Shown here: in pieces, positions 15,421 to 61,980 of the stretch
Layout: each line of letters opens with the position of its first letter
Position numbering within the stretch: the stretch's first letter is position 1
Assembly: GCF_963921235.1 (NCBI RefSeq)
Contig: NC_086097.1
Location: forward strand, 115,012,001 to 115,076,000
DNA: 64,000 bases
Direction: 5' to 3'
Source of the DNA: Mobula hypostoma
Taxonomy: Eukaryota
Notes under the pieces: model-generated
Database searches by the model: none
What the model saw: the letters and a program-made list of their open reading frames with translations, nothing else
What the model was told of the DNA's origin: nothing
Translations under genes and position numbers: made by a program

Positions 15421-18400
15421 GTCAATAGTAAGGGGGTCAGATAGGCGATTCTGTGGACGCAGTCCAGAGACCCGGATGGTAGTTTGCCTCCCTGGTGCCA
15501 GGGTCTGGGATATTTCTGAAGTTGTCCAAGATATCCTGAAGTGGGAGGGTGAGGAGCCAGAGGTCATAGTACATATAGATACCAATGACATAGGTAGGAA
15601 AAGGGATGAGGTCCTGAAAGGAGAATATAGGGAGCTAGGAAGGGAGTTGAGAAAAAGGACCGCAAAGGTAGTAATCTCAGGATTACTGCCTGTGCCACGC
15701 GACAGTGAGAGTAGGAATGCGATGAGGTGGAGGATAAATGCGTGGCTGAGGGATTGGAGCAGGGGGCAGAGATTCAAGTTTTTGGATCATTGGGACCTCT
15801 TTTGGCGCAGGCGTGACCTGTACAAAAAGGACGGGTTACACTTGAATCCTAGGGGGACCAATATCCTGGCAGGGAGATTAGCGGGGGCTACTGAGGTGAC
15901 TTTAAACTAGAATGGTTGGGGGGTGGGAATCAAATTAAAGAGGCTAGGCGTGAGGAGGTTAGTTCACAACAGGGGGATGGGAACCAGTGCAGAGAGACAG
16001 AGGGGTGTAAAGTGAGGGTAGAAGCAAAAAGTACTAAGGAGAAAAGTAAAAGTGGCAGGCCGACAAATCCAGGGCAAGCATCAAAAAGGGCCACTTTTCA
16101 ACATAATTGTATAAGGGCTAAGAGAGTTGTAAAAGAGAGCCTGAAGGCTTTGTGTGTCAATGCAAGGAGCATTCGTAATAAGGTGGATGAATTGAAAGTG
16201 CAGATTGTTATTAATGATTATGATATAGTTGGGATCACAGAGACATGGCTCCAGGGTGACCAGGGATGGGAGCTCATCGTTCAGGGATATTCAATATTCC
16301 GGAGGGATAGACATGAAGGAAGGGGAGGTGGGGTGGCGTTGCTTAAAGAAGAGATTAACGCAATAGAAAGGAAGGACATAAGCCGGGAAGACGTGGAGTC
16401 GATATGGGTAGAGCTGCGTAACACTAAGGGGCAGAAGGCACTGCTGGGAGTTGTGTACAGGCCACCTAACAGTAGTAGTGAGGTCGGCGATGGTATTAAA
16501 CAGGAATTTAGAAATGTGTGCAATAAGGGAACGGCAGTTATAATGGGTGACTTCAATCTACATGTAGATCGGGTGAACCAAATTGGTAAAGGTGCTGAGG
16601 AAGAGGATTTCTTGGAATGTATGCGGGATGGTTATTTGAACCAACATGTCGAGGAACCAACTAGAGAGCAGGTTATTCTGGACTGGGTTTTGAGCAATGA
16701 GGAAAGGTTAATTAGCGATCTTGTCGTGAGAGGCCCCTTGGGTAAGAGTGACCATAATATGGTGGAATTCTTCATTAAGATGGAGAGTGACATAGTTAAT
16801 TCAGAAACAAAGGTTCTGAACTTAAAGAAGGGTAACTTTGAAGGTATGAGACGTGAATTAGCTAAGATAGACTGGCAAATGACACTTAAAGGATTGACGG
16901 TGGATATGCAATGGCAAGCATTTAAAGGTTGCATGGATGAACTACAACAATTGTTCATCCCAGTTTGGCAAAAGAATAAATCAAGGAAGGTAGTGCACCC
17001 GTGGCTGACAAGAGAAATTAGGGATAGTATCAATTCCAAAGAAGAAGCATACAAATTAGCCAGAGAAAGTGGCTCACCTGAGGACTGGGAGAAATTCAGA
17101 GTTCAGCAGAGGAGGACAAAGGGATTAACTAGGAAGGGGAAAAAGATTATGAGAGAAAACTGGCAGGGAACATAAAAATGGACTGTAAAGGCTTTTATAG
17201 ATATGTAAAAAGGAAAAGACTGGTAAAGACAAATGTAGGTCCCCTGCAGACAGAAACAGGTGAATTGATTATGGGGAGCAAGAACATGGCAGACCAATTG
17301 AATAATTACTTTGGTTCTGTCTTCACTAAGGAGGACATAAATAATCTTCCAGAAATAGTAGGGGACAGAGGGTCCAGTGAGATGGAGGAACTGAGCGAAA
17401 TACATGTTAGTAGGGAAGTGGTGTTAGGTAAATTGAAGGGATTGAAAGCAGATAAATCCCCAGGGCCAGATGGTCTGCATCCTAGAGTGCTTAAGGAAGT
17501 AGCCCAAGAAATAGTGGATACATTAGTGATAATTTTTCAAAACTCGTTAGATTCTGGACTAGTTCCTGAGGATTGGAGGGTGGCTAATGTAACTCCACTT
17601 TTTAAAAAAGGAGGGAGAGAGAAACCGGGGAATTATAGACCGGTTAGCCTAACGTCGGTGGTGGGGAAACTGCTGGAGTCAATTATCAAGGATGTAATAA
17701 CACCACATTTGGAAAGCGGTGAAATGATCGGACAAAGTCAGCATGGATTTGTGAAAGGAAAATCATGTCTGACGAATCTCATAGAATTTTTTGAGGATGT
17801 AACTAGTAGAGTGGATAGGGGAGAACCAGTGGATGTGGTATATTTGGATTTTCAAAAGGCTTTTGACAAGGTCCCACACAGGAGATTAGTGTGCAAACTT
17901 AAAGCACACGGTATTGGGGGTAAGGTATTGGTGTGGGTGGAGAATTGGTTAGCAGACAAGAAGCAAAGAGTGGGAATAAACAGGACCTTTTCAGAATGGC
18001 AGGCGGTGACTAGTGGGGTACCGCAAGGCTCAGTGCTGGGACCTCAGTTGTTTACAATATATATTAATGACTTGGATGAGGGAATTAAATGCAGCATCTC
18101 CAAGTTTGCGGATGACATGAAGCTGGGTGGCAGTGTTAGCTGTGAGGAGGATGCTAAGAGGATGCAGGGTGACTTGGATAGGTTGGGTGAGTGGGCAAAT
18201 TCATGGCAGATGCAATTTAATGTGGATAAATGTGAAGTTATCCACTTTGGTGGCAAAAATAGGAAAACAGATTATTATCTGAATGGTGGCCGATTAGGAA
18301 AAGGGGAGGTGCAACGAGACCTGGGTGTCATTATACACCAGTCATTGAAAGTGGGCATGCAGGTACAGCAGGCGGTGAAAAAGGCGAATGGTATGCTGGC

Positions 18401-19729: not shown

Positions 19730-20525
19730 ATCCAACCAAGCAGAGTCTACTGCCAAGAAGACCCACCAGCACCTTTACTTCCTGAGGAAGCTAAGGAAAT
19801 TTGGCCTGTCCCCTAAAACCCTCACTAATTTTTATAGATGCACTGTAGAAAGCATTCTTCTGGGGTGCATCACAACCTGGTATGGAAGTTGTTCCTGTCC
19901 AAGACTGGAAGAAGCTACAGAAGATCGTGAACACAGCCCAGCACATCACACAAACCAATCTTCCATTCTTGACGAAGGGTCTCGGCCTGAAACGTCGACT
20001 GTACCTCTTCCAATAGATGCTGCTTGGCCTGCTGCGTTCACCAGCAACTTTGATGTATGTTGCTTGAATTTCCAGCATCTGCAGAATTCCTGTTGTTTCC
20101 ATTCTTGGACTTACTTTACACTGCACGCTGTTGGAGCATTGCTGCCAGGATAATCAAGGACACGATCCACCCAGCCAACACACTTTTCGTCCCTCTTCCC
20201 TCTGGACGAAGGCTCAGGAGCTTGAAGACTCATACAGCCAGATTTGGGAACAGCTTCTTTCCAACTGTGATAAGACTGCTGAACGGATCCTGACCCAGAT
20301 CTGGGCCATACCCTCCAAATATCCGGACCTGCCTCTCGATTTTTTTTGCACTATCTTACTTTCCCTTTTCTATTTTCTATTTATGATTTATAATTTAAAT
20401 TTTTAATATTTACTATCGATTTGTACTCCAGGGAGCACGAAGAACAGAATCAAATATGGCTGTGGTGACTGTACGCTCTGGTATCAATTGTTTGGCGACA
20501 ATAAATTATAAAGCATAAAGTATAA
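19730..20525 (+). mobile_element. Rex1/Babar 3' fragment interrupted by a PLE mini-insertion
   Basis: LYFLRKLRKFGL, FYRCTVESIL, LPSGRRLRS...NSFFPTVIRLLN; 3' tail near 20500. Confidence 0.85.
19972..20096 (+). mobile_element. 125-bp PLE-derived mini-retroelement starting inside a hammerhead core
   Basis: Perfect 11-bp TSD TTCCATTCTTG (19961-19971 / 20097-20107); 4 mismatches versus the copy at 58095-58229. Confidence 0.9.
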
Positions 20526-34065: not shown

Positions 34066-34245
34066 ACACTCACGACACGCTGGTGGAACTCAGCAGGTTG
34101 GGCAGCATCCGTGGAAAAGATCGGTCGACGTTTCCGGCCGGAACCCTCGACCGATCTTTTCCATGGATGCTGCCCGATCTGCTGAGTTCCTCCAGCGTGT
34201 TGTGAGTGTTGCTTTGACCCCAACATCTGCAGATTATTTTGTGTT
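34066..34245. mobile_element. 180-bp palindromic PLE mini-insertion
   Basis: 14-bp TSD TTTGTTTCGTGGCT (34052-34065 / 34246-34259); ~63-bp inverted arms 34066-34128 and 34147-34209. Confidence 0.9.
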
Positions 34246-35365
34246 TTTGTTTCGTGGCTGCCTGTTAGGAGATGAACTCAAAGTTGTATAGCGTATTCGT
34301 ACTGTAATAATAAATCTACTCTGAACATTTGAACTTCTGTTTTTCTTACTCACCTCTCCACAGCAGAAAAGGGGTAGTGTTTTCCGTCCTTCCTATTCAC
34401 CCTATCAGCCTGCACGTACAGCACATCATTCTTCGGCATTTTGCTGCACGGTAGCATTGAAAATCACGCAATGCTTTACAGCTCCAGGTGTAAGACAGGG
34501 ATTCAATTCTTGCTGTTTTCTGTAAGGGGTTTGTACATTCTTCCTGTGACCACATGGTATTCTCCTCGTGCTGCAGTTTGCTTCTGCATTCCAAGAACAT
34601 ATGGTTGGGGTAGGCGAGCTGCAAGCTCGGTATGTTGGTGCCAAAAGCACAGTGACACTTCCAGCTTGCCCAGCACAATCCTCGTTCATTTGACAACCCA
34701 AATGATGCATTTCACTGTATGTTTTTATGTACATGTGACAAATAAAGCTAATCTTTATCTTTATTTCCATCAGCAGCTTTGTAAGCATGTCGCCAATCAC
34801 ATCATGCCCCTCACCCCACCTCTTTGTGCTTTCTACAAGTAACAAACTCTCCATAACTCCTTGGTTCATGCATTCCTCCCCGCACACATCTTCCCAATGA
34901 TGACAATTTGCCCTGCAAATGGTGCAGCACCTGTCCCTACACCCCTCTCAGTTGTACCTTATGTAGACATCCGTTAGTCTCATGAGACCATGGATTTGGG
35001 CCTTGAAAAGTTTCCAGGGCACAGGCCTGGGCAAAGTTGTATGGAAGACCAGCAGTTGCCCTGCTGCAAGTCTCCTCTCTCCACACACCGATGTTGTCCA
35101 AGGGAAGGGCATTAGGACCCATACAGCTTTGTCCTTGGCAAGATAGAGCCTGCCTGTCAGCCTTGTTCACCTTTGAGTGTGAAAAGGCTCTTGCCCATCT
35201 CCCTTACCATACACTCATACCATCAATCCCTCTAATCTCCTGTGTCAGCTAGTCACTGTAAGCAATTTTTCCTGTAAGTACATCTTTGTGCTGAAAATAG
35301 CAAAGAATTTATTGCCTCATGTTACGTACAGTACAAGTGTGACCATTTATTATTGATCTCTAATG

Positions 35366-49235: not shown

Positions 49236-49822
49236 AAACTTATGATGAATAAACTCTTCTCATGCTTCTAGCCAGGTACAGGCATTGATTACAACCCATG
49301 TTTCAATGACAAAATCTGCTGTCTTTTTCAGTGATGATGCCTGGTCATGTTTAGTCTAGTAGTATAGACATGTTCTCAGTATAATTTATTTATTTGTTTG
49401 TTTGCTTGCACAATTTCTTTTCTTTCCCATGTTGGTTGTTTGTCAGTCTTTGTTATGTATAATTTTTAATAAATTCTGTTGCATTTCTTTATTATAAATG
49501 CCTGCAAGAAAATGAATCTCAAGCTAGTTTGCCACATGCTTCTGAATCTGGGGTTCAGATTCAGATTCGAGATTCAAGATTGTTTAATGTCATTTCCAAT
49601 ACAGAAGTGTGAAGGAGAACAAAATAATTGTTCCTCCGGACCCGATGCAGCACAAAATAAAACACAAAGAGATAAAAAACATAATAATATCAAAAAACAC
49701 AATAAATAAGGTAGTTTATACGCAGGGATTGATTGCATGTCTGTAAAGTGAAGCTAGGCACAAGTGTTTATGCACATAAAGGGACTCTGACCAAAACGAT
49801 AAGGTATTGAACATAAATAATT

Positions 49823-52800
49823 CTTCAGATGCTGGAAATCCAAGCAGCACCCACAGAGTGCTGAGGTATTTTAGCAGGTCAGGCAGTATCCATGGAAAGG
49901 AATAAACAGGTGCTCAGCAATGCAGTCTCCCAATCTATATCCCACCGATATGTCGGAGGCCACACCTGGAGCACCGGATACAGTCGATGACCCCAACAGA
50001 CTCACAGGTGAAGTTTTACCTCCCCTGAGAGGACTGTTCAGAGCCCTGAATGGTAGTGAGGGAGGAGGTATGGGGGCAGGTGTAGCATTTGTTCTACTTG
50101 TAAGGGTAAGTACAGGAGGGCGATCAGCGGGGAGGGACAAATGGACAAGGGAGTCGCATAGGGAGCAATCCCTGCGGAAAGCAGAAAGTGGTCGGATCTC
50201 GTTGGATATGGCAGAAGTTACAGAGAATTATGTGCTGGATACAGAGGCTTCTGTGGTGGTAGGTGAGGACAAGAGGAACCCTATCCCTGGTGAAGTGCAG
50301 GGAGGATGGGGTGCTTACAGTCCCTCACCGGGTTTGTATGGAAACTTGGCTTGTTGCTAGCCTCGCTTACAGCCATGGTACTCAGTGGTGAGAAGGCCAC
50401 CTTTCATAAACAATAGGCACTACAGTTGATATGATTTTGGTTCAACCAAACAGGAATGTCATGATGTTCCGATTAAAGAATCCTCAATTTCAGCGAATAC
50501 TGTGTAAATACTGCCCATACACAATTATCGGTCAGCAAGAAATGACATTGTACACCACATAAAATTATAAAGTAAGTATATTTACAAATTTCTGCTTTAT
50601 TGAATAGTTAGTAGGAAAAAGAAAATGGGAAAAAATAAAAGGGCTCATTACAGTTAAACCAGTCTAAATGTGCACATCATTGGAATTCACCTTGAACTTA
50701 TCTTTTTACTCATGCTTTGGACCCACGGTCTGTGTGAAAGCACACACCACATTCTGAGCTTCACTTGACATCCATCTTGAACAAATGGGCACTTCCTCAG
50801 GAGTTTTGGCCCTTCCTCCTTGGAGCCATTCATATGCACAAAGCACTTTGTGCAATAGGGACTCTCCTTCCCACAACATCCTCAGCTATCTTCCCTCCTG
50901 TCCTCTCTGCAGCTCCCGCCAAAAAGACTACAATCCCCACCAGCGTCCGTCACAAATCTCTTTCCATCCAGCTTTCTCTAGAACCTTCTCTCAATTCCAC
51001 CACCCTGATTGGCTGACACAAAATTCCAAAGTTGAACATCATAGCCCCTTTAGCCGAAACCCAAACATGCTATCAGCAGGACACATTACTTCTACAGAAA
51101 GCTACTAAATGAAATAAGCTACAGCATTAGCAGTAGAAATCTTAGCCAGGGAATTACACGTGAAATAGAAGAGATATGGGTGAGGTCAGCATTGATGGTG
51201 GAGGAAGGAAAGATTCAACAGATATAGAGGAACTGAAAGAAGGGGATGGCATCTTTACAAGTGACAGGGTGGGAAGAGGTGTAGTCCAGGTAGCTGTGAG
51301 AATCAGTGTGATTATAAAAGATATCAGTAGATAAACTGCTTCCAGGGATAGAGATAGAGAGATCGAGAAAGGGGAGTGAGGTTTTGGAAATGGACCAGGT
51401 GGAAGTCAGAGGCAAAGTTAATGAAGTCGACAAGCTCAGCACGGGTGCAGGAAGTAGCCCTATTGCAGTTGTCGATGTAGCGTAGAAGAAGTTGGGGAGT
51501 GATACCCCTGTAGGCTTGGAACATAGACTGTTCCATTTAGCCAACAGAAATGCGGGCACAGCTGGGACCCATGTAAGTGCCCATGGCTATATCTTCTGTT
51601 TGGTGGAAGTGTGAGGAGAAAAAAGAGAAATTATTGAGAGTAAGGACCAGTTCTTCCAGACGGAGGAGAGTGGTAGTGAAGGGGAACAGGTTAGGTTTGT
51701 TATCTAGAAGGAAGCAGAGAGATTTAAGGCCCTCCTAATAGGAGACAGAGGTGTATTGGGGCTGGATGTTCATGGTGAAAATGAGACGATTGGCACCAGG
51801 GAACTTGAAGTCATTGAAAAGATCCGGAGCACGTGAAGTGTCACGGATGTAGGTAGGAAGGGACTGAACCAGGGGGGTTAAAACAGAGTCAAAGTATGCA
51901 GATATAAGTTAGGTGGGACAGGAACAAGCAGAAACAATTGGTCAACCTGGACAGGCAGGCTTGTGGATCTTGGGTAGGAGGTAGAAATGGGAGCTGCAGG
52001 GTGAGGGAACAATGAGGTTGGTGGCAGTGGAAGGGAGATTCCCAGAGTTAATAAGGTCCGTGATGGTGCGGATGATAATGGCCTAGTGCTACTTAGTTGG
52101 CTCGTGTTCAAGGGGTAAGTAAGAGGAGGTGTCTGAGAGATGTCATCTAGCCTCAGCAAGGTAGAGTTCAGTCCGTCAGACTACTACAGTATCCCCTTTA
52201 TCTGCGGGTTTGGAAGTGAGGCTGGGATTAGTGCGGAGAGAGTGGAGAGCAGTGCGTCAGAAGGAGTGAGGTTGGAATTGGAGAGAAGATCTGTAAAGTC
52301 AAAACGGTTGATGTCTCATCAGTAGTTGGCAATGAAAAGATCCAGAGCAGGCAGAAGACCAGGGTGGGGTGTCCAGGAAGAGGAAGAGGGTTGAAGATGG
52401 GAGAAGGGGTCACTGGTGCGGGTTAGAGAGTCCTTGCCAAAGAAATAGTCTTGGAGACAGAGGCAGCAGAAGAAGAGCTAACCGTGATGGCAGGCACGGA
52501 ACTCACTGAGGTGTGGGTACAGGGGGACAAAGGTGAGGCCCTTACTGAGGACAGAACGTTCTGCCTCAGAGAGGGAAAGTTCAGAGGGAATGGTGAAAGC
52601 CCGGCGCGGATGAGAGCTGGGATCGGAGGGGGAAGAAGTTTGGTAGTGTCTGAGGAGAGGGGAGGATTGGGGTGATCAGGGAAGGTGAGGTGGGCGGAAT
52701 ATGGAGTCTCCGAGGGCTCAAAAGCTAGTGGTGGGACCTGAGAGACATGAAATTGCAGAGTGGTGGTGGGGTAAGTGGAGCCAGGATCCAACAGCAGTGT

Positions 52801-56885: not shown

Positions 56886-58089
56886 TGTGGTGATATGACG
56901 TGTCAGAACATGACCAGAGAGAGTTCTGAGCAGGCGCAGAAATGATAGAATGATTGAGAACATGGTACTGTAAAAACGTGGTTTGGTTGTTGCTGTAAGT
57001 AAAAGTTCTATTTCTTTCAGAAAATGTTTCTTTATTAGTAACCCAAGGTACGTATAAATATCAAGAACAAAACATGTTGTCAGAGGTCAGTCTGGAAGAA
57101 TAATACGTTTCCTAACATGGGAGAATCGAAGATAAAAACGAGTTCAAAATGTTTTGGTGTTTACTAACAATTTTACAAATGGAAGGGCTGCGACCTCCAC
57201 CAACCCTTCAATTGTCTGGGAACATAGCGGAGAACAAATTTGATGCATTTTGTATACCGAAGTGTAATGTGACGTACGAAAGGCATAAATTTTTTACATG
57301 TGTGCAGAGATCCAGTGAAACAATTGATCAATATGTTTCTGAGTTGAAACACCAGAGTAAAACATGCGAGTTTAGAGAACTAACAGACTCTCTCATTAAA
57401 GACAGAATTGTTTGTGGCATTCGGGATAATGGTCTGAGAGAAAGACTGTTAAGAGAACAAAATTTAGACTTGGAAAAAACTTCGATGCTCTGCAAAGCTT
57501 CGGAAATTGTCACGTCACAGGCTAAAGACCTTTTCATGGAAAACTGCAACATAAACGCTGTAAAAAAGTGCGAACATATTAAAAAAAGTAAAACGACAAC
57601 AAAACCAACAGAAAGCAAGACGTCATCTGAGAGAAAAAAGCTATGTGATCACTGTAGGTGCAGGATCGGCCAAAACAGTGTCCAGCATATAGCAAAATGT
57701 GCAATGACTGCGGTAAGAATAATCATTTTTTCACGCTGTTGCAGAAGTAGAAAGAAAATAAAACAAGTAAATGCAGTGTTTGAAAATGAACTTGAGGAGT
57801 CTTATATAGATGTGCTTTGTGAAAACAAACAAAGTAAGAATGACTGGACAATTCCATTGCAAGTGAACCAAAGCAATACTCTGTTTAAACTTGATACTGG
57901 AGCACAAGTAAATGTTCTTGCAGAATCTGAGTTTAATGCATGGAAGCCAAGACTAAAGTTACATAAAACAAATATAAAAGTGATTGGGTATTCAGGTGCA
58001 GACATTCCATTTAAAGGAACATGTGTGGCAAAAGTATCACAAAAATTACTGTGCACATGGTTTCATTTGTGGTGGTGCCAAAGAAAGTA

Positions 58090-58127
58090 CAGTCCTGACG
58101 AAGGGTCTCGGCCTGAAACGTCGACTG
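58090..58127 (+). ncRNA. Minimal type I hammerhead ribozyme motif
   Basis: Stem I CAGUC (58090-94) / GACUG (58123-27); CUGACGA 58095-58101; stem II 58102-58114; GAAAC 58115-19; GUC cleavage triplet 58120-22; palindromic ACGU in place of stem III. Confidence 0.75.
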
Positions 58128-58229
58128 CACCTCTTCCTATTGATGCTGCTTGGCCTGCTGTGTTCACCAGCAACTTTGATGTATGTTGCTTGAATTTCCA
58201 GCATCTGCAGAATTCCTGTTGTTTTTGTT
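58095..58229 (+). mobile_element. 135-bp PLE-derived mini-retroelement inside the Gypsy protease region
   Basis: Perfect 11-bp TSD AAAGTACAGTC (58084-58094 / 58230-58240); the empty site restores VVPKKVQSILGLSVCERLNLVKR. Confidence 0.92.
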
Positions 58230-59008
58230 AAAGTACAGTCAATACTGGGTTTATCTGTCTGTGAGAGACTGAATTTGGTGAAAAGAGTATTAGTCCTGGA
58301 CAGTGAAACAGAGTCAGAATACAGTGACTTGATGAAAGAGTACAAGGACTCGTTCAAAGGGCTTGGTTGTCTTCCAGGAGAGCACACGATTAAAATTGAC
58401 AATACAGTGCAACCCATAGTACATCCATGTAGAAAAGTACCTTTTGCATTACATCATCAACTGAAAACAGAGCTTGACAAAATGGGATGGCTAGGAGTCA
58501 TAAAAAAAATTGATGAACCAACTGAATGGGTCAATTTGCTTGTTATAGTTGATAAGAAAAATGGAAAACTGAGGATTTGCTTAGATCCAAGAGACTTGAA
58601 TCAAGCCATTAAAAGAGAGCATTTCAAATTGCCTACTTGTGAAGAAATTATGTCACAGTTTGCTAATACAAAGTACTTTAGTGAATTAGATGCATCCTCT
58701 GGATTCTGGCAACTGAAACTAGATGAACCGAGTTTGAAGTTGTGTACCTTTAACACTCCTTTTGCTAGACACTGTTTTCTCTGGCTTCCATTTGGAATTG
58801 CATCAGCTCCTGAAGTGTACCATAAAACCATTCACATGCTATATGAGCACATTGAGGGCGTAGATAATTCCATGGATGATATTATTGTTTGGGGATCATC
58901 TAAACAAGAGCATGACGCTAGACTCAGACAAGTCTTTGAGGCTTAGGGACTTAGATCCAGAAACAAGGTCTGCCCAAATTGAAAAAGAATTGCTCAGCAT
59001 TCAGCGCT

Positions 59009-61980
59009 CAGAATCTAAAGAGTTTCGAAAAATTATCACTAATGCATCCACTATTTCTTGGGCTACTTCCTTAAGCACTCCAGGATGCAGACCATCTGGC
59101 CCTGGGGATTTATCCGCCTTTAATCCCTTCAATTTACCTAACACCACTTCCCTACTAACATGTATTTCCCTCAGTTCCTCCATCTCACTGGACCCTCTGT
59201 CCCCTAATATTTCCGGAAGATTATTTATGTCCTCCTTAGTGAAGACAGAACCAAAGTAATTATTCAATTAGTCTGCCATGTCCTTGCTCCCCATAATCAA
59301 TTCACCTGTTTCTGTCTGTAGAGGACCTACATTTGTCTTAACCAATCCTTTTCTTTTCACATATCTATAAAAGCTTTTACAGTCAGTTTTTATGTTCCCT
59401 GCCAGTTTTCTCTCATAATCTTTTTTCCCCTTCCTAATTAAGCCCTTTGTCCTCCTCTGCTGAACTCTGAATTTCTCCCAGTCCTCAGGTGAGCCACTTT
59501 TTCTGGCTAATTTGTATGCTTCTTCTTTGGAATTGATACTATCCCTAATTTCCCTTGTCAGCCATGGGTGCACTACCTTCCTTGATTTATTCTTTTGCTA
59601 AACTTGGATGAACAATTGTTGTAGTTCATCCATGCGATCTTTAAATGCTTGCCATTGCATATCCACCGTCAACTCTTTAAGTGTCATTTGCCAGTCTATC
59701 TTAACTGATTCACGTCTCATACCTTCAAAGTTACCCTTCTTTAAGTTCAGAACCTTTGTTTCTGAATTAACTATGTCACTCTCCATCTTAATGAAGAATT
59801 CCACCATATTATAGTCACTCTTACCCAAGGGGCCTCTCACGACAAGATTGCTAATTAACCCTTCCTCATTGCTCAATACCCAGTCTAGAATAGCCTGCTC
59901 TCTAGTTGGTTCCTCGACATGTTGGTTCAAAAAACCATCCCGCATACATTCCAAGAAATCCTCTTCTTCAGCACCCTTACCAATTTGGTTCACCCAGTCT
60001 ACATGTAGATTGAAGTCACCCATTATAACTGCTGTTCCTTTATTGCACACATTTCTAATTTCCTGTTTAATACCATCCCCAACCTCACTACTACTGTTAG
60101 GTGGCCTGTACACAACTCCCACCAGCGTTTTCTGCCCCTTAGTGTTATGCAGCTCTACCCATATCAATTCCACATCTTCCCAGCTTATGTCCTTCCTTTC
60201 TATTGCTTTAATCTCCTCTCTAACCAGCAATGCCACCCTACCTCCTTTTCTTTCATGTCTATCCCTCCTGAATATTGAATATCCCTGAATGTTGAGCTCC
60301 GATCCTTGGTCACCCTGGAGCCATGTCTCTGTGATCCCAACTATATCATATTCATTAATAAAAATCTGCACTTTTAATTCATCCACCTTGTCACGAATGC
60401 TCCTTGCATTGACACACAAAGCCTTCAGGAACGCTTTTACAACTCTCTTAGCCCTTATACAATTATGTTGAAAAGTGGCCCTTTTTGATGCTTGCCCTGG
60501 ATTTGTCGGCCTGCCACTTTTACTTTTCACCTTACTACTTTTTGCTTCTACCCTCATTTTACACCCCTGTGTCTCTCTGCACTGGTTCCCATCCCCCTGT
60601 TGTGAACTAACCTCCTCTCGCCTAGCCTCTTTAATTTGATTCCCACCCCCCCAACCATTCTAGTTTAAAGTCACCTCAGTAGCCCTCGCTAATCTCCCTG
60701 CCAGGATATTGGTCCCCCTAGGATTCAAGTGTAACCCATCCTTTTTGTACAGGTCACGCCTGCGCCAAAAGAGGTCCCAATGATCCAAAAACTTGAATCC
60801 CTGCCCCCTGCTCCAATCCTTCAGTCATGCATTTATCCTCCACCTCATTGCATTCCTACTCTCACTGTCGCGTGGCACAGGCAGTAATCCCGAGATTACT
60901 ACCTTTGCAGTCCTTTTTCTCAACTCCCTTCCTAACTCCCTATATTCTCCTTTCAGGACCTCTTCCCTTTTCCTACCTATGTCATTGGTACCTATACGTA
61001 CCATGACCTCTGGCTCCTCACCCTCCCACTTCAGGATATCTTGGACACGATCAGAAATATCCCGAACCCTGGCACCAGGGAGGCAAACTACCATCCGGGT
61101 CTCTGGACTGAGTCCACAGAATCGCCTATCTGACCCCCTTACTATCGGGTCCCCTATTACATCCGCCCTCCTCTTCCTTTCCCTACCCTTCTGAGCTACA
61201 GGGCCGGACTCTGTGCCGGAGGCACGGCCACTGTTGCTTCCCCCAGGTAAGCTGTGCCCCCCAACAGTACTCAAACAGGAGTACTTATTGTCAAGGGGCA
61301 CAGCCACCGGGGTACTCTCTATTACTTGACTCTTCCCCTTCCCCCTCCTAACCGTGACCCACTGGTCTGCCTCCTGTGGCCCCGGTATGACCACCTGCCT
61401 GTAACTCCTCTCTATCAACTCCTCACTCTCCCTGACCAGACGAAGGTCATCGAGCTGCAGCTCCAGTTCCCTAACGCAGTCCCTTAGGAGCTGCATCTCG
61501 GCGCACCTGGCGCAGATGTGGATGTCCGGGAGTCTTGGAGACTCCAGGGCCTCCCACATCCGGCACCGAGAACAACAAACTGCCCTCACACTCATACTGC
61601 CCCTCTCCTCAAATAACAACAGAAAATGAATACCAAACCTTCCCCGCGTCGCCCGTTTCCGCCTAAGCCCATTGAGCCGAAGCCTTAAGCCTTCACTCTG
61701 CTCCCGGCTCACTCTGCCGCCCACAAACCACGCTGCCCACTGTATGAGGCTCTGTTCCTTTTAAATCTTCCGCGCTTCACTGCCCGACGTCACACGCCTG
61801 CGCAGTCCCGCCTCTCTGAACGCCGATGGAAAAAAACCCCGAAAAATTCAAAAATGTCTTCCTCCGCACTCCCGCTCCAACTCTCAGACTTCCTTCTTCA
61901 AATCAAACCCAAAGCAGGATTTCTGTCCTTTTAAATCTTCCGCGCTTCACTGCCAGACGACACAGGCTTGCACGTCTCCT
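59009..61980 (-). mobile_element. 5' half of a CR1 LINE (5' UTR, zinc-finger/esterase ORF1, APE domain), 3'-truncated
   Basis: ORF1 MSVRAVCCSRC...CARC, coiled coil, VIGDPIVRG, GTND; APE ORF 59598-60557; near-identical to 15421-17555 in reverse. Confidence 0.95.

Follow-up and report, generated by a model that had tools for sequence, protein, structure and literature searches.

Penelope-like elements (PLEs) coding for a GIY-YIG endonuclease (EN+ PLEs) are described as leaving copies with inverted 5' arms, an optional tail and target duplications (PMC8557442, PMC3846280), and the CX2-5CXXC linker between their reverse transcriptase (RT) and endonuclease (EN) domains is given as a feature of the Neptune clade that is common to Nematis (PMC8557442). 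Minimal hammerhead ribozymes of PLEs occur mostly as solo motifs derived from truncated elements, according to the published survey (PMC4209133). For a PLE of the anole, internal RT starts were reported at two sites bounding the tail, and in vitro the protein of that element needed RNA beyond its start sites (PMC11167929). An internal, TATA-less promoter has been described for Penelope of D. virilis (PMC2377424), and retrocopies of back-spliced circular RNAs are known in mammals (PMC4897178).

Here, two short inserts are compared with these systems. They lie in a stretch of 64,000 nucleotides of Mobula hypostoma (NC_086097.1, positions 115,012,001 to 115,076,000), called the window below. PLE pseudo-LTRs with minimal hammerheads are already known, and the value of the present family lies in a mechanistic footprint, not in a new class of element. 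In our preferred reading, to which a probability of about 0.7 is given, the inserts and their genomic relatives ("stubs") are pseudo-LTR-only copies, for which RT would start about 130 (or 95) nt inside an uncleaved RNA and run off 3-4 bases before the hammerhead core.

Materials and methods

Positions within copies were numbered from the hammerhead, with +1 at its C3 (window position 58095) and -1 at the base preceding C3. The copy sample consisted of young tail matches on contig C1 (the first 100) and of older-subfamily matches (the first 90 of 100 listed); ten of its alignments were mended by hand, and 12 of its copies were moved to the inverted class. Breakpoints were counted genome-wide with patterns of two non-matching bases before a 29-nt body, and their shares were computed by hand by dividing the counts by the share of allowed dinucleotides and by the body counts, the latter estimated from checked loci. 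Conservation was scored on 63 diverged relatives chosen by similarity from 1.46 Mb of DNA. Transcripts were sought with the ORF start as query in assembled contigs, which are unable to show RNA ends and of which one run only is on record as RNA.

Inserts in the window and their hammerhead motif

The 135-bp insert at 58 kb and the 125-bp insert at 20 kb (Table 1) differ at 4 of 125 positions, and each is flanked by exact 11-bp direct repeats; both statements of the sequence-only reading were borne out when the sequence was re-read. It had further stated that each insert disrupts the ORF of another transposable element, and this holds: the first lies in a Gypsy-like pol frame, with a protease motif upstream and RVT_1 downstream, and the second near the end of a LINE-like ORF, both hosts being broken elsewhere as well. 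The inserts had been described as having no ORF, to which it must be added that the first ~14 codons of the parent ORF close the insert (ATG at 58183). A search of the window gave eight weaker matches at 70-85% identity, the number of older copies counted before as a minimum, except that a single inverted pair, with its two arms, accounts for two of the eight. The PLE at 49.9-52.6 kb, in which the same body had been seen, does carry a related match, of 74.7% over 83 nt only, and is a distant relative. It was ruled out as the parent by this low body identity, by 53-74% amino-acid identity to the young ORF and by its missing hammerhead and 3' UTR. The window also holds a 2.1-kb pair in opposite orientation (15425-17556 and 59009-61145), 95% identical, which probably represents two young copies of another repeat.

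Table 1. Position of the inserts, their target site duplications (TSDs), motifs and surrounding elements in the window
Feature	Position	Strand	Basis or remark
Left TSD, 58-kb insert	58084-58094	+	Last 4 bases are also native -4 to -1 (microhomology), giving the stem I 5' arm
5'-truncated pseudo-LTR of the young Penelope-like family (+1 to +135)	58095-58229	+	Sequence comparison with genomic copies
Right TSD, 58-kb insert	58230-58240	+
Minimal type I hammerhead motif	58090-58127	+	Sequence; features as given in PMC4209133; no Rfam match; cleavage predicted
Hammerhead core	58095-58101	+	Followed by an extra A
Hammerhead stem II	58103-58114	+	G10.1.U11.1
Hammerhead GAAA	58115-58118	+	Followed by palindromic ACGU; predicted cut after 58122
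Hammerhead stem I 3' arm	58123-58127	+
Parent ORF start frame and ~35-nt PLE tail (+95 to +130)	58183-58224	+	Between two putative RT start sites; basis includes PMC11167929
Host Gypsy-like pol region	57500-58952	+	Interrupted between protease and RT; already broken elsewhere
Left TSD, second insert	19961-19971	+
Second pseudo-LTR insertion, start +4 (or +2 with microhomology)	19972-20096	+	Incomplete hammerhead
Right TSD, second insert	20097-20107	+
Older head-to-head inverted pseudo-LTR pair, related family	34079-34251	.
Older decayed related PLE, RT and partial GIY-YIG, no hammerhead	49819-52603	-	Body match 49819-49899, 74.7%

A complete minimal type I hammerhead had been claimed for the 58-kb copy. 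The motif is present there, but the claimed 5' arm of stem I (CAGUC, 58090-58094) lies inside the left target duplication and belongs to it; the native arm of the young family is UAGUC, and only AGTC is common with the target, i.e. a 4-base microhomology. The core nucleotides, the extra base after A9, the palindromic 15.2-16.2 and helices I and II are found together in the 58-kb copy and not in the 20-kb copy, which has no complete hammerhead because the stem I 5' arm and C3 are absent from it. The pair G10.1-C11.1 is replaced by G.U in the young subfamily; the older subfamily, like 30 of the 63 diverged relatives, has G-C.

Scanning of the insert with the Rfam hammerhead models gave no match at E<=1. 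The minimum-energy fold of the monomer (-11.7 kcal/mol) pairs the core away, and the hammerhead fold, at -7.7 kcal/mol, is predicted to be disfavoured by 4 kcal/mol; the folding z-score of the insert was -1.38, and z-scores were not significant. Among the 63 relatives, conservation was 0.84 in the core and 0.79-0.83 in the stems against 0.59 and 0.66 in the adjacent flanks, with 0.83 also at +48 to +75, and changes in stem pairs of this similarity-chosen set were one-sided only.

Parent element and copy number

By their sequence, the inserts are assigned to the pseudo-LTR of a young, very abundant autonomous Penelope-like element with RT and GIY-YIG domains. This pseudo-LTR consists of the minimal hammerhead, about 95 nt, and then a 35-nt tail with the first codons of the ORF. 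When the 30 best matches in the genome were followed upstream, most ran into one RT and GIY-YIG frame; the PLE origin proposed by the sequence-only reading was right. Representative loci are a tandem with a 3,516-bp (3.5-kb) unit (L200/L201), an open frame of 1,043 amino acids (L206) and a full pLTR-ORF-pLTR copy of 3.65 kb with a target duplication, whose 5' end lies at -4 to -2 (L202). The L206 protein matched RVT_1 at E=6e-5, under the Pfam cut-off, and its GIY-YIG and CCHH residues were seen in the translation, the GIY-YIG domain not being called by Pfam. Between RT and EN it has a C-X4-C-X2-C linker, which fits CX2-5CXXC, and by two features, the linker and the CCHH residues, the parent protein would be of Neptune/Nematis type. 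The parent shows the features of EN+ PLEs, namely a single ORF with RT and C-terminal GIY-YIG, pseudo-LTRs, partial tandems and an inverted 5' arm.

In the 3.48-Gb assembly, the exact 33-nt core occurs 39,061 times and the exact 34-nt tail 30,902 times, in keeping with the abundance proposed before; the exact tail of the older subfamily occurs 4,161 times, and the exact 31-mer just past the tail 534 times. Recent activity and mobilisation by a PLE RT/GIY-YIG protein, also part of the earlier proposal, were upheld.

An apparent cluster of ends near -2630 is a place where the element continues upstream, and two loci 1.4 Mb apart (L070 and L083) have the same rearranged internal junction, in which an inverted arm that stops near -2629 is attached to -804. 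Two long copies (L303 and L323) have a common internal duplication (+1017 back to +809), which suggests a variant master. One insertion is present three times in a locally duplicated block (L005, L012 and L013; G000:C40, 25.2 Mb), the flank of which, read by eye, translates like an antigen-receptor V segment.

Arms and ends of genomic copies

Simple copies number 44 among the 100 young ones anchored at the tail, and the other 56 have an inverted or other arm; 35 of the 100 start in -19 to +5, and 31 reach past -300. The copies match the published PLE pattern cited above, and the optional 30-40-bp PLE tail is present in the family. The 3' ends fall into two classes: most inverted arms stop at +83 to +103, i.e. 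without the tail, and the others at about +128 to +138, which fits the two internal RT start sites of the anole element (PMC11167929). Where target duplications are clear, most measure 11-16 bp. Within a copy, the 5' end of one arm correlates with that of the other (rho 0.61, n=80), and the two lie within 8 nt of each other in 20 cases, against 10.4 after shuffling.

The 5' ends of simple copies pile up near the hammerhead. In the young sample, 18 of the 39 simple copies at risk end in -19 to +5 (0.024 per base, against 0.0012-0.0024 on either side), and in the sample of the older subfamily (n=90) 11 of 42 do so (0.013 against 0.0011-0.0023 per base); the Poisson probabilities of the excess are 5e-15 and 2e-7, respectively. 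A smaller peak at -18, which abuts a branch-point-like A at -19, is formed by eight young simple copies and no old one (p=0.002). The sequence-only reading had set a smooth distribution of copy lengths as the mark of ordinary 5'-truncated PLEs; the lengths are not smooth, and because the 5'-end peak is sharp the length distribution does not refute that reading.

Genome-wide, the breakpoint patterns gave 2,002 matches at -3, 286 at -18, 101 at the control position -23 and 435 at +29, the cleavage site, corresponding to hand-computed shares of about 9%, 2.6%, 0.6% and at most 1.8%. Checking of 30 loci at -3 showed every one to be a true breakpoint, with another arm adjoining in 12 cases and a simple copy in 18; 10 of the simple ones have the tail and eight are without it, two being one duplicated site. 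At +29, 27 of the 30 checked loci are true, 26 adjoin another arm, 18 via 2-5 shared bases, and one may be simple. Cleavage-defined 5' ends were rejected as the main source of the copies, simple inserts that start at the cleavage site being nearly absent; since 26 of the 27 true +29 breakpoints adjoin another arm, the ribozyme cut product is not the usual template. The hammerhead heads the insert and was copied uncleaved, so that it is retained uncut, which parallels the anole element, for which uncleaved RNA was reported as the main substrate in vitro (PMC11167929).

Two further arrangements were seen at these positions. One inverted junction is common to three separate loci (L409, L410/L396 and L411/L398); in it, a single additional base separates an arm that stops at -3 from one that stops exactly at the predicted cleavage site. 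At G000:C58, 30,976,585-30,976,711, three matches to the -23 pattern stand 48 bp apart as a very short tandem of the pseudo-LTR start.

Jumps and tandems

Of 67 matches to the sequence past the tail, 37 continue into the ORF and 30 break off at +172 to +782 (21 of them at +250 to +325). Most of the latter (22/30) rejoin a pseudo-LTR between -138 and -3, and both segments of such copies often begin at nearly the same point. At two loci the rejoining is exact and repeated, with a GT donor at +305 joined to the AG acceptor before -6 and a unit of 310 nt: four junctions at L346 (G000:C2, 157.816 Mb) and two at L373 (G000:C50, 58.412 Mb). Their flanks, target duplications and haplotypes differ, which makes them independent, each a single insertion, and a genome-wide search that allowed up to one mismatch gave no other match to the +305/-6 junction. 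In L346 a variant alternates, which suggests that a later duplication produced half of this locus. The mini-tandems at L347 (+239 to -28) and L308/L309 (+318 to -126) each repeat a junction of their own twice, there without splice sites. About half of the long copies have GT as the dinucleotide at the +305 donor, and the rest have AT.

The simplest reading of L346 and L373, judged by their junctions, is the rolling copying of a candidate back-spliced circle (-6 to +304), a reading that rests on n=2 loci; alternatively, a long tandem transcript may have been spliced. Neither canonical splice joints nor a bridge across the 310-nt junction occurred in the assembled contigs, whose step in depth near -9 was set aside as unusable. 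The rare mini-tandems attributed to jumps, together with the two repeated-junction loci, look like precursors of retrozymes.

Relation of short to long copies

Over +13 to +95, the mean distance of 22 short simple copies among themselves was 0.059 and that between these and 61 long or full-length copies 0.058, the third mean being 0.055. The smallest of nine p values in site tests of short against long copies was 0.013, not significant after correction, and haplotypes were common to both. Retrozymes form a lineage separate from the autonomous element; the 22 short copies do not stand apart in this way from the 61 long ones, with which they interleave, and short-only masters were not seen in this sample. 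Tandem hammerhead units, the other mark of retrozymes, occur only at rare loci (L346, L373 and L347), and the copies in the window are monomers. Because haplotypes are shared with long copies and the short copies are not tandem, the latter are not a separate retrozyme.

Discussion

The following course of events would account for the copies. RT would start at about +130 or +95 of an uncleaved RNA and run off at a preferred 5' end of this RNA, 3-4 bases before the hammerhead core; the two target ends may each prime one cDNA, one from +130 and one from +95, which would give the inverted pairs; and run-off cDNAs would sometimes jump to RNA at +200 to +320, which would give the mini-tandems. The stubs would be unable to move again, dead on arrival, because they end at the tail, without the downstream RNA that the anole protein needed (PMC11167929), a need for post-tail RNA that is borrowed from a Poseidon-clade element. 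A more tentative form of this reading, held at clearly less than even odds, makes the template a short RNA that reaches from just before the uncut hammerhead to about +300: run-off would have produced tens of thousands of stubs and jumps the mini-tandems, a 310-nt back-spliced circle would have been copied at least twice, and retrozyme-type tandems would be born at insertion without ribozyme cleavage. If this were true, the family would be a genome-wide fossil record of PLE RNA handling.

The point at -3/-4 probably is a physical 5' end of RNA. Only two of 27 long copies that cross the upstream pseudo-LTR stop in -19 to +5, against 52 of 142 tail-anchored arms (p~0.003, computed as 2/26), and several junctions at -4 have extra untemplated bases before the jump; because long copies read through and such bases are present, a physical end is favoured over a sequence barrier. 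This end could well be, at slightly less than even odds, the initiator-type start site of an internal promoter. Hexamers that we take to be initiator-like overlap -10 to -1, but the peak is at G(-3) and not at A(-4) or A(-8), as would be expected of an initiator. The junctions at -3 were also read by eye for an extra G derived from a cap, and none stood out; G was enriched next to -18 but equally next to the -23 control, and a cap-derived G is not supported. A stop of an exonuclease at a ribozyme/protein complex and a fold-back stop of the cDNA share the remaining probability.

In the fold-back model, which we consider unlikely, the template is long and RT stops at -3/-4 either when the cDNA folds back after both stem I arms have been copied or at a protein-bound structure. 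The cDNA end at -3/-4 can fold back on +29 to +32, and folding back through stem I would stop at the same place as the peak, at the base of stem I; moreover, at 7 of the 27 inverted +29 junctions the link to a -4 arm is the 4-base complement of stem I, the extended hairpin is the predicted fold, and many ancient relatives also appear cut near -4. The same sequence was read through by 25 of the 27 long copies, however, and run-off typically shows itself in untemplated bases and jumps such as those after -4, as with R2-type enzymes. Ordinary random 5' truncation with no preferred end has next to no probability left: about a third of the copies are long, ends are scattered, and heavy truncation is known for PLEs (PMC8557442), yet the stop rate is ten-fold higher within a 24-nt window in two subfamilies, and the 2,002 breakpoints at -3 against 101 at -23 refute it unless -23 happens to be exceptionally cold.

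A distinct non-autonomous ribozyme mini-element, retrozyme- or SINE-like, self-transcribed and mobilised by the PLE protein, was the proposal of the sequence-only reading and now appears improbable. Lengths do fall into discrete classes of about 133 and 97 bp, and retrozyme-like mini-tandems exist, 30 of the 67 post-tail matches breaking off and most of these rejoining the pseudo-LTR, so that mini-tandem loci could serve as small masters. What decides against it is that the short copies have no private or diagnostic variants and no clustering against the long copies, that their 5' ends range from -19 to +12, that a full-length copy (L202) starts at the same place as the stubs, that the window copies are monomers, one of them without a complete motif, and that there is no sign of cleavage-defined ends. 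Still less probable as a general source are splicing intermediates, in which RT would stop at -18, the branch point, or at a 3' splice site that had been cut, and would sometimes copy round a circle made by splicing or back-splicing. A branch-like heptamer, a pyrimidine tract and an AG stand just before stem I in young and old copies, an arrangement like the intron end described for Penelope of D. virilis (PMC4209133), and two independent loci have four and two exact GT-donor/AG-acceptor junctions with a 310-nt unit. Yet the main peak (-3) lies three bases off the acceptor used (-6), the older subfamily has equally good branch sites and no -18 peak, and no more than about half of the long copies have GT at the +305 donor. 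The junction expected from loss of an upstream intron (-132 donor to -6 acceptor) had 0 genomic matches for the one donor tested, repeated junctions without splice sites also exist (L347 and L308/L309), and no assembled contig of the runs, which were guessed to be RNA, bridges the 310-nt junction.

The preferred reading, run-off of internally started RT at a preferred RNA end, touches the open questions of how PLEs copy themselves, what the hammerhead does and how retrozymes arise, for which one in vitro system was found in the literature. More than 30,000 near-identical insertions give coordinates exact enough to be tested: putative RT starts at +95 and +130, an end at -3, a cleavage site that is almost unused, jump donors at +250 to +325 and a candidate spliced circle from -6 to +304. 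For annotation, it is a warning that such 135-bp repeats resemble SINEs or retrozymes but are by-products.

Compared with EN+ PLEs of the Neptune clade as described in PMC8557442 and PMC3846280, the family is alike in its single ORF with RT and C-terminal GIY-YIG, CX2-5CXXC linker and CCHH residues; its copies likewise show partial tandems, inverted 5' arms and heavy 5' truncation, and the ORF start lies within a 30-40-bp tail. It differs from these descriptions in the sharp 5' end 3 nt before the core and in the dominant classes of ~133 and ~97 bp. A preferred PLE 5' end at the hammerhead and splice-junction PLE tandems were not found reported in the literature searched (main texts, few of them subscription papers, and outside Repbase and Dfam). 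The motif resembles the minimal metazoan PLE hammerheads (PMC4209133) in its core, the extra base after A9, the absence of loop 3, the palindromic 15.2-16.2, the short helix I and, as here, its occurrence mostly as a solo motif; unlike those described there, the motif of the young subfamily shows G10.1.U11.1 in place of G-C, with a helix II of 4 bp, and its activity is predicted. With the Poseidon element of Anolis (PMC11167929) it has in common two RT starts bounding the tail, a hammerhead near the ORF start, the copying of uncleaved RNA and the extension of both target strands, whereas that element is of another clade and its ORF is reported to start in stem II, not about 90 nt after the core. 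Non-LTR retrozymes, as presented in PMC7229834 and 10.64898/2026.07.22.740005, are likewise derived from PLE pseudo-LTRs, and the 310-bp tandems of L346 and L373, with a hammerhead motif in each unit, are like them. The window inserts differ from the retrozymes of these sources in being monomers that carry a minimal motif and form no separate lineage, and the tandems of this family differ in that their unit boundary is a splice-site pair or a jump instead of a ribozyme cut, and in having arisen at insertion instead of by later satellite expansion.
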